From an uncultured Bacteroidota bacterium (lineage in GTDB: Bacteria > CLD3 > SB21): a stretch of DNA of 64,000 nt. The translations under genes were made by a program, and so were the position numbers. Below are positions 2,779 through 23,397 of this stretch, piece after piece (the stretch's first letter is position 1; each line of letters opens with the position of its first letter). The DNA lies in the NCBI GenBank assembly GCA_964478735.1, contig CAYZJB010000004.1, positions 15,480 through 79,479 on the forward strand, given 5' to 3'. Under the pieces are notes generated by a model that was not told where the DNA came from, did no database searches, and was given only the letters and a program-made list of their open reading frames with translations.

Positions 2779-4553
2779 TACTCCTGGAACATCTTTTGCC
2801 GTATTTGAAGCGTCACCGCTGGCTGTTGATCATCGGATTTGTATTCGTGATCCTTAAAAATCTTTTCCAATCCATGTCGCCGTTGGTCGTGCGGGAGGCG
2901 ATCGACAGCTTGTCGGAAACGCCCGTAGGATTTTTCTACGTTTACGTCGTCGAACCGATGTTTGGTTCCTCTGCCATCTCCGGGTTTGTCTTATGTTTTC
3001 TTTTTTTCGAATTGCTTCATGCGATGTTTTTGTACGGCATGCGCAGGACGCTCATCGTCACGTCACGCCGGGTCGAGTACGATTTTCGAAATGATTTTTT
3101 TGCCCATGTGCAGCGTCTTCATGCCGGTTTTTTCCAGACGACGAGGACGGGCGACCTGATGAGCCGGATGAACAGCGATCTGGGGGCCGTTCGCGACGTC
3201 CTGGGACCGGGCATTATGTACACGGCCAACACGATCGTATCGTTTCTCTACGTCGTACCGATGATGCTATCCATCAGTCCGTTGTTGACCGGGCTGGCGT
3301 TTTTACCGCTTCTGCTGTTGTCGTTTCTGATCCAGCGGCTATCGGGGCAAATCCACGTACGTTCTGAGCGTGTGCAGGAAAAACTCGCCGACATCAGTTC
3401 ACGCGCGCAGGAAAATTTCAGCGGAATCCGCGTCGTCATGAGCTTCGTTCGAGAAGCGTTTGAAATCGAGCGCTTCCGGGCCATGAACCGGGATTACGTC
3501 CGATTGAACATGGGACTCGTGCGGGTACGCGGCGTGATGATGGCGTCGGTCATTTTGACGATGGGGCTGAGCGTGGCCGTCCTGCTGGGATGGGGAGGGA
3601 AACTCGTGATGAGTGACGATATGTCGCTCGGTCAGTTCACCGCGTTCAGTTTTTATCTCGCCATTTTGATTTGGCCGATCATTGCGTTGGGCTGGGTGAT
3701 CAATATATTCCAACGGGGTTCGGCGTCCATGAAGCGCATCGTGGAAATTCTGCAAACGGAACCGCTCATCACGGATGCATCGGCGCATCCGCTGCATCCG
3801 GCCATTCGCGGGCAAATTGAATTTCGAAACCTCACGTTCAGTTACGGCGATCGACCGCCCGTGCTTCACGGCATATCGCTGCGAATCGACGCGGGGATGA
3901 CGTTGGCAATCGTCGGTGCAACGGGCAGCGGAAAAACGACACTGGTCAGCCTGATCCCGAGGATTTACGATGCATCGCCGGGCATGGTGCTGCTTGACGG
4001 GCAAAACATCGAATGCTACCCGTTGAATGTCTTGCGCGGATCGATCGGCATGGTTCCGCAGGATACGTTCTTATTTTCCGACACGATTCTTAATAATCTC
4101 CTTTTCGGCATCGATGGGGCAGATGCGAAAACGGGCCTGTGGGCGTCGGACATTGCCCAGTTGACTGAAGCGGTCCAGAGTTTCCCGGACGGCTACGGTA
4201 CGATGATCGGAGAACGCGGCATTACGTTATCCGGAGGGCAGAAACAGCGGCTGGCTATCGCACGGGCCGTTGCGAAGGAACCCCGGATTCTCATTTTAGA
4301 CGATGCCCTGTCGAGCGTCGATACACGTACCGAAGAAGCGATACTGGTCCGAATGAAAGAACTGATGCGCGAGCGGACCTCCATTGTTGTCAGCCATCGT
4401 CTGCAGACGATCCAACACGCCGATCATATCGTTTTGCTTGCCGACGGACGGATTGCCGAACAGGGAACCCACACGGAATTGCTCGCCCACCGCGGTGCCT
4501 ATTTAAGATTGTACGATCGGCAACAAATTGAGCAGGAACTCGCCGAGACATGA
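2775..4553 (+). CDS. ABC exporter, fused permease/ATPase (MsbA/lipid-exporter type)
   Basis: 6-TM N-terminal half, Walker A GATGSGKTT, ABC signature LSGGQKQRLAIARA, Walker B ILILDDA; ATGA overlap with nadD. Confidence 0.85.
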   Translation: MILLEHLLPYLKRHRWLLIIGFVFVILKNLFQSMSPLVVREAIDSLSETPVGFFYVYVVEPMFGSSAISGFVLCFLFFELLHAMFLYGMRRTLIVTSRRVEYDFRNDFFAHVQRLHAGFFQTTRTGDLMSRMNSDLGAVRDVLGPGIMYTANTIVSFLYVVPMMLSISPLLTGLAFLPLLLLSFLIQRLSGQIHVRSERVQEKLADISSRAQENFSGIRVVMSFVREAFEIERFRAMNRDYVRLNMGLVRVRGVMMASVILTMGLSVAVLLGWGGKLVMSDDMSLGQFTAFSFYLAILIWPIIALGWVINIFQRGSASMKRIVEILQTEPLITDASAHPLHPAIRGQIEFRNLTFSYGDRPPVLHGISLRIDAGMTLAIVGATGSGKTTLVSLIPRIYDASPGMVLLDGQNIECYPLNVLRGSIGMVPQDTFLFSDTILNNLLFGIDGADAKTGLWASDIAQLTEAVQSFPDGYGTMIGERGITLSGGQKQRLAIARAVAKEPRILILDDALSSVDTRTEEAILVRMKELMRERTSIVVSHRLQTIQHADHIVLLADGRIAEQGTHTELLAHRGAYLRLYDRQQIEQELAET

Positions 4554-20800: not shown

Positions 20801-21565
20801 CCGTCGCTGTTCCAAACGTCTTATTCGGTATCGGAATCCGGTACACTGGAAATTGCGGCGACGTTGGAGGACTCTGCTGGAAATCAGACCGTACCGTCGA
20901 GAGTTTTTACCTTTGCGCTGCTGCCAAAGACCCGTGTGCTGGTCAGTCATGACCGGCGTGTGACTACGTCCTTGTCGCGGAGCCGAGGCATTTTGTGGTT
21001 GGGTGTCGAACCGGCGGAGAGGGCGGCCTTACCGATTTCCACGACTTATGCGATCGACGTGGGCGGGACGGTCGAGTCGGGTAATCCTCTTGAACTTTCG
21101 ATCGATTATTCGACGCTGGACGTCGGTGCGCTGGGTTGGACAGACGATTCAAAAATCGGGATTTATCGAATGGAATCCGGAACGCCGGTATACATCGGTG
21201 GGGCCGGCAGAGCCGGGCGTATCGCTTCTCAAATCGATCGCCTCGGACGATACGTGCTGGGCTATGATCCAAACCGACAAAGTTTGCCCCGTGAATTGCA
21301 TCTCGACAATTATCCCAATCCCTTCAATCCGATAACCTCGATACGGGTTGCGTTGCCGTTTTCATCGGACGTCCGCGTCGAGATATACAATCTTATCGGC
21401 CAACGGGTTAAAACGCTATATCGTGGCTTTCTTCCGGCCGGCCGCCATACCATGACGTGGAATGGTACCAGCGAAACAAGTAATCGTGTAGCCACGGGCG
21501 TTTATTTGTGCCGCGTTTCATTTGCCGGTCAGGTGACAACGAGAAAAATGCTGCTCGTCAAATAG
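17855..21565 (+). CDS. large secreted right-handed parallel beta-helix repeat protein (1236 aa) with T9SS C-terminal sorting domain
   Basis: signal peptide; >15 repeats of GNxIGxN / ISGNxxDGI beta-helix type; C-terminus NYPNPFNPITSIRVALP...VEIYNLIGQRVKTL...GVYLCRV canonical T9SS type-A CTD. Confidence 0.8.
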   Translation: MYNFAMIILLYIRHLVVLMLFVSVIYGQTITVTSSADSGPGTLRDAIQLANGSLTVDTIRFDTLSMGSAVISITTALPILTDDSIVIAGPVWPGGEPAVTIDGGALTSGENTITISGSFCEVQSLTLINNQSTGAAVEITGGVSNRVTGNTIGLDRIGQNAMPNSVGVLITGGQAHRIGDSSAAGGNIISGNLEDGIRIVASHDNVVLNNRIGVNRFGTAAGNASSGILINSGSKATRIGSGTPSGRNIIGGNLTGIRIADNGSDSTAIDGNWIGVHFSSSVANGTGIRIENGASSTRIGQWGNVTPNTISGNTGDGISIVGSLTRGTTIRGNRIGTDTTGSTGIGNAGSGIFIQDARRSTIGGVAVGESNVISGNGFDGILLDGTDSTFVYGNRIGVDGSGMLAIPNMNNGIELQSAARNTTIGGRSAGQGNVISGNDAIGILIVDEGTSRASIVGNLIGVALDSVGDVGNGESGVHLSFGASRDSVNYNLIAYNGVGIAYEDATTDSNVHFANSIFRNGQGIDIALNAQGDIIPPAIAYVSLDTTVHGTADPFAFVQIYADSVDQGRFFLDTARADAAGNWSRKVQLPGGARVLAIQEAGMSSSEFSTPFEPFIGPVGVSLPTLSFGNVFLGQTDTQSVRIFSLSGDVILTDQFLSSLGEFTVLTTFAFPETLAVGDTLTIEIAFTPADFGTRNSSWHILNNSSIPVFGLPLTGYGQAGSLIAMDTVVFPETIVGDSSSVTISVKAEDAPVQLTEAVTQTPVFSIVSQPTLPFTLLNGVVDSVLFEIKYRPSLSTLQGDTLIIQSNSPAGDRYVLLQGHGLPNQSPGSFPLLPLPGGSTTNNRRPTFLWRRSVDADGDTVIYTLQISTTANFASITQSVQTPDTVVVLPLPLDTLQSYYWRVFARDDKNGETVSNVGFFTVDAVAPRGSLRILPSPILQTSAAIYVYSSEPLESASTRIRFWDVEQQLLDSINVQLTEIQPSLFQTSYSVSESGTLEIAATLEDSAGNQTVPSRVFTFALLPKTRVLVSHDRRVTTSLSRSRGILWLGVEPAERAALPISTTYAIDVGGTVESGNPLELSIDYSTLDVGALGWTDDSKIGIYRMESGTPVYIGGAGRAGRIASQIDRLGRYVLGYDPNRQSLPRELHLDNYPNPFNPITSIRVALPFSSDVRVEIYNLIGQRVKTLYRGFLPAGRHTMTWNGTSETSNRVATGVYLCRVSFAGQVTTRKMLLVK

Positions 21566-22891
21566 ACGGGCCACAGGGATAAAAATTCAGGCAACCCCCA
21601 AAATTTTTTACTAACCCCTCCTTTGCTCCTCTTACGCACGGAATTTTTTCGGTATGATGAAAGCCTCCCGCTCGTTGAGGGCTTTTAGTGAAATTATTTT
21701 GATTGCTATCTGGAAGAGATTTAGAGCAGGGTTCAATCGAAATGTCACTCCTTCGGGGTTGACGTAAACATTTGTAGTAGTGTTTTTACAATCTGCATCC
21801 CTTCGGGATTGGCCCGCGATGGCAACACTCAAGCCCGAAGGGCTGAAATGATTGTATGAAGAACGTGCAAATAGAGTGCGAACCCCGAAGGGTGGTAGGG
21901 CCGTCCTCGGTAAAGCCGTCAGCTTTTCACACAACAAAAGGTGCTTTAGAGGTATCATCGTCTTTCGTGGACTGACCGCGTTCCCTCTCCTGCAGCACGG
22001 CAGTCCTGACTGCTCTTGAGCAAGATTGCGGGTTCACTTGAGCGGAGCAGGATGTGCACCGTATTTTTCGCAGCTCCTTTTGTTCCGTTATGGATTGGTT
22101 ACAACATCCGTGTACGACAAAAGGAGTTTTTTCTTGTATGTTCTTCAGCGCTCGAAAAAGAACCTTTTTTACCCTCAACAATTGCCGCCCGAGCATCTAA
22201 AATCAGGCCTTCGCGGGGGTTGTCTGTAGAAATTTGCCTTGACTATACACGACGGGACGGATTACCTTGGCCTGTCATGATACGGTGCTCGGGCTTTCTA
22301 TTACTGATTTCGTTTTCAGCGCTCCAGGCCTCCGAAGATTGCTCCGGACCTGTCGCTTCGAGGCCGGTTCCTGCATCATTTCAAAACTTCGATCATCTTC
22401 AATTTCCCGTTTTCCTTGGCTCGTTTCGAGAAGACTCCGACGGCAACACGTTCAGCCAGAAGACAAAACCCTACATCGCTTTTCTCCCGTCAAGTAACAT
22501 TTTACATCACTCGACAAAAAACGCTTTACGTTCGATTCTCCGTATTCACCACGGCCAGCTCGGCATCATTTCAGCCTTCCGTGCTCCTCCCGTCTTGTCC
22601 CTCCTTTAAGTAACAGGAACTAAAAGTTCAATCGGGTGCCGGCGTCTCCGATCCCTGATGGGACGCGGGCAATCGTAATTGCCTGTCCCGGCAGCGGCCG
22701 GTAGGGGCGCTTTTAAACGGCAACGTAACGGCCGTCATCATTTTACAATTTTTTTAAATACAGTCCGTCTTTATGGATGCATTAACCTTGTCTATCAGCG
22801 TCGCACTTATGGCTGCGCTGGTGGGGGTCTTCATTCACTTGATCATAAAATCAAAATCACAAAAAAATTAATAAAACGGAGTTTGACCTAT

Positions 22892-23173
22892 ATGCAGAAC
22901 ACGGAAACGTATCGGAATCTGATTTCCTGCGAGGAACTGTTTATGCAGGACCAGGAGTGGCTGGATAAACGAAACCGAGCCGTGAAAAAAATATTTAACG
23001 GTAATGAAAACGAATTCAAACAATTCCTGTCCCGCATCGAGCCGCTCCAGCAGTGGAAGGATGCGATGGTCGTCATCGAAGACGAGTTCTCCAAGCGGAA
23101 AGTGAAAAGCGATGCGCGGGAAGCCACCGGGTTGACCGACGTGCTTTTCAAGCGCTACTTCCCGTCGTACTGA
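22892..23173 (+). CDS. small hypothetical protein (93 aa)
   Basis: ATG 22892 preceded by GGAG 8 nt upstream; followed by bidirectional terminator. Confidence 0.45.
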   Translation: MQNTETYRNLISCEELFMQDQEWLDKRNRAVKKIFNGNENEFKQFLSRIEPLQQWKDAMVVIEDEFSKRKVKSDAREATGLTDVLFKRYFPSY

Positions 23174-23232: not shown

Positions 23233-23397
23233 TTATCCCGCCAGGGCTTTGTCCACCTGATCCTGTGTGGCATAGCCTTTGGCGACGATAATCTCGCCGA
23301 GTTTTTTACCGCTGCTCTTCTGTTCGCTCAGACACTCGTCGAGTTGGGCCTGAGTGATGACTCCGTTTTTGATCAGCGTGTCACCGAGCATCGCCAT
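23233..23397 (-). CDS. 54 aa mini-protein consisting of two tandem MshEN / GspE-N-like motifs (putative c-di-GMP-binding module)
   Basis: not in ORF track (<60 aa); AGGAGG 8 nt upstream of ATG 23397; sequence MLGDTLIKNGVITQAQLDECLSEQ-KSSGK-KLGEIIVAKGYATQDQVDKALAG matches xLGxxLLxxGLLxxxxLxxxLxxQ-x5-repeat. Confidence 0.6.
   Translation of the reverse strand: MAMLGDTLIKNGVITQAQLDECLSEQKSSGKKLGEIIVAKGYATQDQVDKALAG

Follow-up and report, generated by a model that had tools for sequence, protein, structure and literature searches.

What is the cluster of nested inverted CCTTCGGG motifs that lies in a seemingly gene-free interval (positions 21566-22891) of a contig from an uncultured Bacteroidota bacterium? 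The 64 kb window analysed here, whose numbering is used throughout, is otherwise densely coding, and the original prediction for this interval had allowed for two answers: a structured regulatory RNA with the mutually exclusive pairings of an attenuator or riboswitch expression platform, or a cluster resembling the repetitive extragenic palindromes (REPs) of other bacteria. We consider it probable that the cluster is a four-unit module of a REP-like repeat family and not a regulatory RNA. The motif copies themselves are where they had been predicted, two of them direct, at 21750-21760 (copy A) and about 21799-21808 (copy B) on the plus strand, and two inverted, at 21833-21843 (copy C) and 21881-21891 (copy D). 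The predicted pairings were likewise confirmed, A with D at 11/11 positions and B with C at 9/9, the latter extendable to 16 nt at 88%, and within each direct motif pair the copies are spaced 50 nt start to start. A first-order Markov model predicts about 2.9 CCTTCGGG/CCCGAAGG 8-mers for the window as a whole; for four of them within 150 nt, an analytic estimate from the same kind of model gives P ~1e-7.

The motif is not confined to this bacterium. One genome per species was scanned for two copies of CCTTCGGGRTTG lying 30-50 nt apart, which returned more than 119 loci, and the units at these loci share a consensus of about 28 nt, CTAyAATCATGTCAyCCCTTCGGGrTTGG. The bulk of the at least 119 loci belong to Bacteroidota, Ignavibacteriota and Chloroflexota (Anaerolineae), with fewer in Kryptoniota, Caldithrix and Planctomycetota (Jettenia), and a minority of those listed are coding repeats or chance matches, for example in Methanosarcina and some Proteobacteria. 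Spacing between units has its mode at 47-57 nt, and among the listed loci the units form direct arrays of up to 17-20 copies or inverted sets. They are strongly extragenic, with only 3 of 425 units inside open reading frames (ORFs) of at least 200 aa as compared to 67% of bases. Among the matches listed, several loci may occur in one genome: at least four in Jettenia ecosi J2 and at least six in the metagenome-assembled genome (MAG) JPNG_maxbin.068.

Units A, B and C of the window have the extended family consensus in common, and D is a degenerate copy of it. Unit A (AAATGTCACTCCTTCGGGGTTGA, 21733-21762, plus strand) matches the family profile at 20.2 bits in nhmmer (E 2.8e-5) and is 95% identical over 21-22 nt to units of many loci, and unit B (TACAATCTGCATCCCTTCGGGATTGG, 21786-21812, plus strand), which carries the TAyAAT box at the start of the consensus, scores 16.6 bits and is 93% identical to units of loci L057, L069 and L092. 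Unit C (CATACAATCATTTCAGCCCTTCGGGCTTGA on the minus strand, 21829-21858) scores 15.5 bits and shows 88-93% identity to units of many loci; its stem contains the variant G-C, a third type of compensatory pair. Unit D (CCTACCACCCTTCGGGGTT on the minus strand, 21881-21900) reaches 8.8 bits (E 0.14) and is without one stem base and without the TAyAAT box. Together, the four units make up a '++--' module (21745-21895). Colinear counterparts, matching it unit for unit, are found in MAGs of Ignavibacteriales (L116), Chloroflexi (L069) and Anaerolineales (L122). The best DNA matches of the window module are found in the Ignavibacteriales MAG NC_groundwater_753, which at 55% GC is like the window. The module is predicted to form a long hairpin on either strand: as RNA it folds into a single long imperfect hairpin (-70.9 kcal/mol, z = -4.0), and as single-stranded DNA it reaches z = -5.8 and -6.1 for the two strands. 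In the window as elsewhere, the units sit between genes.

The original prediction had drawn each copy as a local hairpin with a C(UUCG)G tetraloop, and the family alignment points to a different register. Across 521 unique units, the base flanking CCC on its 5' side covaries with the base flanking GGG on its 3' side: the two are C-G in 329, T-A in 141, G-C in 7 and T-G in 13, with about 30 mismatches. In a formal count over 148 units, a 5-bp stem with a 3-nt loop has 96.6% paired cells, and the one column pair that varies appreciably, 19:29 (CG 93, UA 50, GC 1), has a covariation score reached by 0/500 shuffles. The cUUCGg tetraloop register, at 73.8% paired and with no covariation, was rejected in favour of the triloop register. 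As judged from the alignment, the conserved hairpin is A-T, Y-R, C-G, C-G, C-G with TTC as its loop, or C(GAA)G when read on the opposite strand. The sequence d(C-GAA-G) is an unusually stable DNA mini-hairpin, and such stability would fit a role of the unit as single-stranded DNA.

The units are also associated with a transposase. When the ORFs of 100 aa or longer at the 119 listed loci were clustered, one family emerged, present in at least 25 loci. Its members are about 153 aa long and match both Y1_Tnp PF01797 (E 1e-22 to 1e-25) and the NCBIfam IS200/IS605 transposase model NF033573. The Y1 gene directly adjoins unit arrays in 25/25 of these listed loci, on both sides in about half of them, and units upstream of the gene are antisense while those downstream are sense. 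The repeat-cluster reading of the original prediction is thereby borne out, in that the window units match a widespread extragenic family that elsewhere flanks a Y1 gene in inverted orientation. The protein carries the motifs DHVH (DH[IV]H), WQ and Y..ILNQEEHH (Y...Q..HH) and a conserved C-terminal tail, a combination that by sequence places it in class 1, subclass 1.2 of a published TnpA_Y1 survey (PMC6006769).

Two side observations concern the way in which arrays and gene adjoin. In L101, the AT-rich boxes of the inverted units on either side of the Y1 gene include its start and stop codons (at 3383-3410, GGGGTGATATAATT-ATG, and 3860-3885, TAA-TTATTTCACCCC), such that the gene is packed between two hairpins without a spacer. 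At other loci (L064 3083-3643, L123 2006-2665 and similar ones), direct arrays translate into spurious 'PSGL/TPSGLG'-repeat ORFs, and direct arrays also give false N-terminal extensions of the Y1 gene; array-derived ORFs of this kind are likely mis-annotated as proteins in MAGs.

How do these repeats compare with known systems? REPs are short palindromes outside genes, found singly, as dimers in any of three orientations or in tandem clusters, and have a link with the Y1 transposases termed REP-associated tyrosine transposases (RAYTs) (PMC3733652). The present units resemble the REP/BIME/REPIN-RAYT systems of E. coli, Pseudomonas and Stenotrophomonas in being short extragenic imperfect palindromes (at about 28 nt within the 20-40 nt of REPs, and able to form a stem-loop) found as singletons, dimers and tandem clusters, in bracketing a small HUH/Y1 gene with inverted copies, here in the loci of other genomes, and in forming longer hairpins from inverted pairs as REPINs do. 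They differ in their stem of only 5 bp with a TTC/GAA triloop, in direct arrays whose units recur regularly every ~50 nt, about 20 times at most, and in their hosts, which are Bacteroidota, Ignavibacteriota, Chloroflexota and Planctomycetota, whereas REP-RAYT systems are proteobacterial. With the insertion sequences of the IS200/IS605 group (IS608, ISDra2), the family shares a Y1 HUH enzyme of PF01797/NF033573, DNA hairpins of the kind that serve there as subterminal recognition elements, and a conserved sequence 5' of the hairpin foot. An IS200/IS605 element ends in two dissimilar hairpins carried by one strand, and it is multi-copy as a whole; here, in contrast, the gene is flanked by inverted copies of identical units, and what is numerous is the unit and not the gene. 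The inverted bracket around the Y1 gene follows the arrangement of REPs around RAYT genes and not the IS200/IS605 one. Similarly, the Correia/NEMIS elements of Neisseria, the BOX elements of Streptococcus pneumoniae and ERIC are noncoding insertions of 100-600 bp with terminal inverted repeats (TIRs), target duplications, a modular interior, strong secondary structure and an intergenic position beside promoters or terminators, all features that have counterparts here; they show no sequence similarity to the present locus, whose internal modules are the Y1-associated units.

The window module does not stand alone and instead lies within a lineage-specific, MITE-like (miniature inverted-repeat transposable element) insertion of 639 bp (21588-22226) that has no transposase ORF. 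Loci of relatives were obtained via the 93-aa protein encoded at 22892-23173, and in BLAST comparisons with them the alignment covers the end of a gene for a cargo protein of the type IX secretion system (T9SS; stop codon at 21565) and then jumps straight to 22230. The insertion is missing in three related loci (L003, L004 and L125) that keep both flanking genes, and there the T9SS-cargo stop codon is followed by the promoter-like block of the next gene within about 20-110 nt; about 55 kb of relatives' sequence contains no units. The 12-bp TIRs, CAGGCAACCCCC on the left (21588-21599, plus strand) and GGGGGTTGTCTG on the right (22215-22226, plus strand), are complementary at 11/12 positions and fall exactly at the junctions set by the three empty sites. 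Adjoining them are two 8-bp direct repeats, TAAAAATT (21580-21587) and TAGAAATT (22227-22234), that match at 7/8 positions and form a candidate target-site duplication, and the empty sites in L003 and L125 have a single GAAA(A/T)T (GAAATTT/GAAAAAT) at the insertion point. Both TIRs at the exact ends and a target duplication with an empty site in relatives are thus present as in MITEs; from its letters, 21588-22226 has the anatomy of a non-autonomous TIR element, and the odd structure at the locus is a recent insertion of repeat DNA. Just before the right TIR, CTAAAATCAGGCCTTCGCGGGGGTTG looks by eye like a degenerate fifth unit, and the family profile does not detect it.

The empty sites bear directly on the idea that the nested inverted motifs are a cis-regulatory switch, an attenuator or riboswitch expression platform, for the downstream gene. 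Alternative pairings of the kind that such a switch would use can be drawn, both between A:D and B:C pairing and the local hairpins and further downstream, where 22072-22084 can pair with 21933-21945 or with 22117-22126. However, the downstream gene and its promoter-like block are retained in three orthologous loci from which the segment 21588-22226 is missing, and the units occur in hundreds of unrelated intergenic contexts in both orientations. Inverted repeats of such size are moreover common, with 31 pairs of comparable size in 1.6 kb of the region. Rfam gave no match at the gathering score in the 64 kb and only chance-level matches (E 1.3-5.7, with E<=10 as the cut-off) for 21400-23000, and typical arrays of the family likewise had no Rfam match. 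The apparent mutually exclusive pairings exist because inverted copies of a palindromic unit produce them, and the riboswitch or attenuator reading of the original prediction is rejected because there is neither an Rfam match nor conservation at the orthologous loci; we give it next to no chance of being correct. For a locus that is itself of modest interest, a false riboswitch/attenuator lead is in this way removed.

A different RNA reading is that of a small RNA, about 340 nt long, encoded in the insertion and running from the TACAAT of unit B (-10-like, with TAAACA 16 nt upstream) to a hairpin at 22072-22135 (plus strand). This hairpin is strong (-24.7 kcal/mol, z = -4.4) and is followed by TTTTTT, a U6 tail in the transcript, as in an intrinsic terminator; a simple terminator scan misses it because of its long apical part. 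A promoter-like site at 21765-21792 and the folding of the whole insertion, which is better than that of shuffles (z = -3.6), are also consistent with a transcript. Against this, two promoter-like sites were found where 1.7 are expected in shuffles, the Rfam searches found no match and comparative support is lacking, and the non-repeat part of the insertion has no homologue in the family loci or metagenome scans. The TAyAAT box, -10-like as it is, is kept equally in Bacteroidota, whose main (housekeeping) promoter motif is TAnnTTTG, and in the brackets around Y1 genes it points away from the gene. Given this orientation and the conservation in Bacteroidota, we read the box as part of a DNA recognition or cleavage site and not as a promoter, and a small RNA appears unlikely.

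Other secondary structure in the insertion is less marked. A metagenome scan with the 22072-22135 stem returned 103 mostly gut-metagenome loci without extended similarity, which are therefore chance terminators unrelated to the present one. The weak terminator-like hairpin that had been pointed out at 21661-21686 (plus strand) does exist, but at -9.4 kcal/mol (z = -1.4, with 15/200 shuffles folding as well) it is no better than shuffled sequence, and the terminator scan does not list it. Short AAAAGG(A/T)G / CTCCTTTTGT repeats at 21933-21947, 22072-22084, 22114-22130 and 22157-22168 offer alternative pairings with the terminator-like hairpin, and their occurrence is within chance level for the region given the abundance of inverted pairs noted above. 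Scans for tRNA/tmRNA genes and for tandem repeats had no finds.

If the locus is an insertion, what moved it? TIRs together with an 8-bp duplication mark DDE-type cut-and-paste elements and are not a trait of Y1 enzymes, and the 639-bp insertion may be an ordinary MITE moved by a DDE transposase, with the units as passengers or later arrivals and the Y1 enzyme playing no part. This explanation concerns the outer element only and is compatible both with the units being REP-like and with all data on the outer element. Besides the TIRs and flanking repeats lying exactly at the junctions from the three empty sites, it is in keeping with the interior, in which no Y1 transposase resemblance was found and whose two longest ORFs are without a Pfam match. 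A composite from Candidatus Jettenia ecosi J2 provides a parallel. There, a 295-nt sequence with sharp ends (TATAGTAC...GATCACTATA), short TIRs and four units in '--++' order recurs at L079 2868-3172, L096 533-912, L114 6691-6994 and L121 1711-2009 with 95-99.6% identity, and at this identity unit-carrying composites have therefore moved recently in that organism. The copy in L096 holds an extra 81-nt insert at about 780-860, with inverted ends (AGTACCTGA...TCAGGTACT) and lying between TA dinucleotides; this insert is a second tiny MITE nested in the first.

Assembly breaks at the locus bear on the same question. In two runs (SRR10095373 and SRR10095374) from the same organism, contigs L128, L129, L001 and L002 are 100% identical to the window and break inside the insertion, stopping at 21649/21662 from the left and starting at 22103 from the right; the right-side contig ends are identical at 22103, and the central ~21650-22102 is joined to neither flank. 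These breaks would fit a multi-copy core, as expected of a MITE, but could equally be due to strain polymorphism. A second copy of the non-repeat part was in fact found neither by window self-BLAST nor in the plasmid collection, nor in the family loci or the metagenome scan: the 119 listed family loci share with the insertion only the unit region, the metagenome scan with a 22-mer of the non-repeat part gave 0 matches, and exact-protein look-ups for contigs spanning the insertion (with the 108-aa, 110-aa and 89-aa ORFs) returned no record. In addition, the inner part of the TIRs (CAACCCC / GGGGTTG) equals the 3' end of the repeat unit, and the insertion ends may for that reason themselves derive from units. 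Taken together, we regard a DDE-mobilised MITE as a possible, if somewhat doubtful, account of the outer element.

A further reading is that the stretch is a decayed gene, such as a remnant of a Y1 transposase or another frameshifted protein. The insertion ends resemble the inverted-unit bracket of Y1 genes, and the interior minus the 155-nt module measures about 435 nt, near the length of a Y1 gene. However, a six-frame profile search of 21566-22276 was empty even at E<=100, blastn and tblastx against 25 Y1 genes gave only chance-level matches, and neither the 108-aa ORF nor a 197-aa ORF (22016-22609) belongs to a Pfam family. The pseudogene that the original prediction had allowed for thus leaves no trace in any of these searches, and we consider a decayed gene very improbable.

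Having set these explanations aside or apart, we return to the cluster as a REP-like module and to the observations that weigh against that reading. The family is without the GTAG or CGTC tetranucleotide that classical REPs carry at one palindrome end (PMC3733652), on either strand of its consensus, and has in its place the 5' flank ...AATCATGTCA (CTAyAATCATGTCA). RAYTs are class 2 enzymes (Y...NP), whereas the enzyme of this family is of class 1.2 (Y...Q..HH). Because of the missing tag and the subclass 1.2 transposase, the family is filed here as REP-like and not as a member of the GTAG/CGTC REP-RAYT group. In the stem, a single pair varies enough to covary, and the scan pattern had itself fixed most stem positions. 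The remaining ~480 nt of the insertion has no match in the family loci, the metagenome scan or the plasmids, and given the DDE-type signature of the insertion ends the four-unit module may be only a passenger of the insertion. Finally, the dispersal within a genome that is expected of REPs is seen in other genomes, such as those of Jettenia ecosi J2 and JPNG_maxbin.068, but not along the window, in whose 64 kb the family profile detects no further units and where tblastn and a six-frame profile search found neither a Y1 gene nor a remnant of one. With one cluster and no Y1 gene in the window, dispersal and a cognate enzyme are presumptive for the window's genome.

In the mechanism that we propose, largely by analogy with better-studied Y1 enzymes, the single-stranded DNA hairpin and its conserved 5' flank would be the recognition substrate of the Y1 enzyme, which would spread or maintain the units as RAYTs do REPs and REPINs. 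Recognition would take place during replication, by analogy with E. coli TnpA_REP and IS608 TnpA. Units would be copied or moved by the enzyme, with insertion beside existing units giving rise to the 50-nt arrays; two direct and two inverted units make up the 150-nt hairpin. The window's genome would encode such an enzyme. The module would have come within the element with TIRs and a target-site duplication or have inserted into it, and the 639-bp insertion landed between the T9SS-cargo stop codon and the promoter-like block of a small secreted-protein gene. The module now lies 180 nt downstream of the T9SS-cargo gene. Any effect on the neighbours would be a by-product, possibly the stabilisation or termination of the upstream transcript by a 3' stem-loop, or an insulation of the downstream gene by the hairpin at 22072-22135.

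The identity of the associated enzyme suggests a broader interpretation. Quentin et al. (2018) described TnpA_Y1 subclass 1.2 as low-copy, not IS-like and without REPs, and as occurring in Bacteroidetes (PMC6006769). The unit-associated proteins agree with that subclass in DH[IV]H, WQ, Y...Q..HH, a length of about 150 aa and the conserved C-terminal tail, and differ from it in that at least 25 of their genes lie beside unit arrays and that their hosts extend to Chloroflexota, Ignavibacteriota and Planctomycetota. Since the subclass is listed without REPs, the repeat family may be undescribed; no description of the family, or of REP/RAYT systems in these phyla, was found in the open-access literature, which is not proof of absence. 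We tentatively suggest, at somewhat less than an even chance, that the units are the missing cognate repeats of these 'orphan' subclass-1.2 Y1 transposases, and that the two form an undescribed REP/RAYT-like system that arose from the IS200 branch independently of the proteobacterial RAYTs. Such a system would range over Bacteroidota, Ignavibacteriota, Kryptoniota, Chloroflexota and Planctomycetota, and its hallmarks would be the TAyAAT box with a GAA/TTC-triloop mini-hairpin, tandem arrays with a 50-nt period and up to about 20 units, and four-unit palindromic modules from which larger mobile composites, the 639-bp insertion among them, would also arise.

The wider interest of the locus lies in this link between a widespread short repeat and an IS200-like Y1 branch that had been surveyed as without REPs (PMC6006769), in hosts that include environmental Bacteroidota, Ignavibacteriota, Chloroflexota and anammox Planctomycetota. 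If the suggestion is true, it would amount to a second, independent origin of a partnership between a transposase and satellite repeats like that of REPIN-RAYT, and many assembly breaks and spurious 'PSGL'-repeat ORFs in MAGs of these phyla would be accounted for. Biochemistry would gain a compact enzyme with a single-stranded DNA substrate of about 28 nt; cultured hosts exist, such as Pseudochryseolinea flava SDU1-6.

Outside the insertion, the interval is less empty than had been thought. It was predicted to hold no credible ORF from 21566 to 22891, and it in fact contains two small conserved genes, which are added to the annotation of the locus here; noncoding sequence is found only at about 21566-22276 and 22610-22772. 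The first gene (22277-22609, plus strand) lies within the 197-aa ORF. Its 110-aa product has an N-terminus like a signal peptide and aligns with the proteins of L003, L004 and L125 at 34-61% identity, with the block FPVFLGSFR invariant. The gene is preceded at 22239-22270 (plus strand) by the promoter-like block TTGACT ... GATTACCTTG, which is kept in the same three loci at the same distance from the ATG. The second (22773-22871, plus strand) encodes a 32-aa hydrophobic membrane peptide, MDALTLSISVALMAALVGVFIHLIIKSKSQKN, with clear counterparts in L003, L004 and L125, and genes are called at its position in L003 and L005. The suggestion that the region is more AT-rich than its flanks holds in modest measure, with GC of 0.45-0.52 here versus 0.51-0.59 in the flanks.

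Several minor observations concern the surroundings of the insertion and of the arrays. The window encodes PorV and T9SS-sorted proteins, which assigns it to a bacterium of the FCB group. In the 15-unit array locus of a Flavipsychrobacter (L009), a cobalamin riboswitch (97 bits) lies at 933-1144 and is unrelated to the repeats. Downstream of the insertion, the 32-aa gene lies 20 nt upstream of the 93-aa gene (22892-23173, no Pfam match), and this pair is kept in L003, L004 and L125; in L005, a 44-aa gene precedes the homologue of the 93-aa gene. Further on, at 23233-23397, the minus strand carries a conserved ORF of 54 aa.

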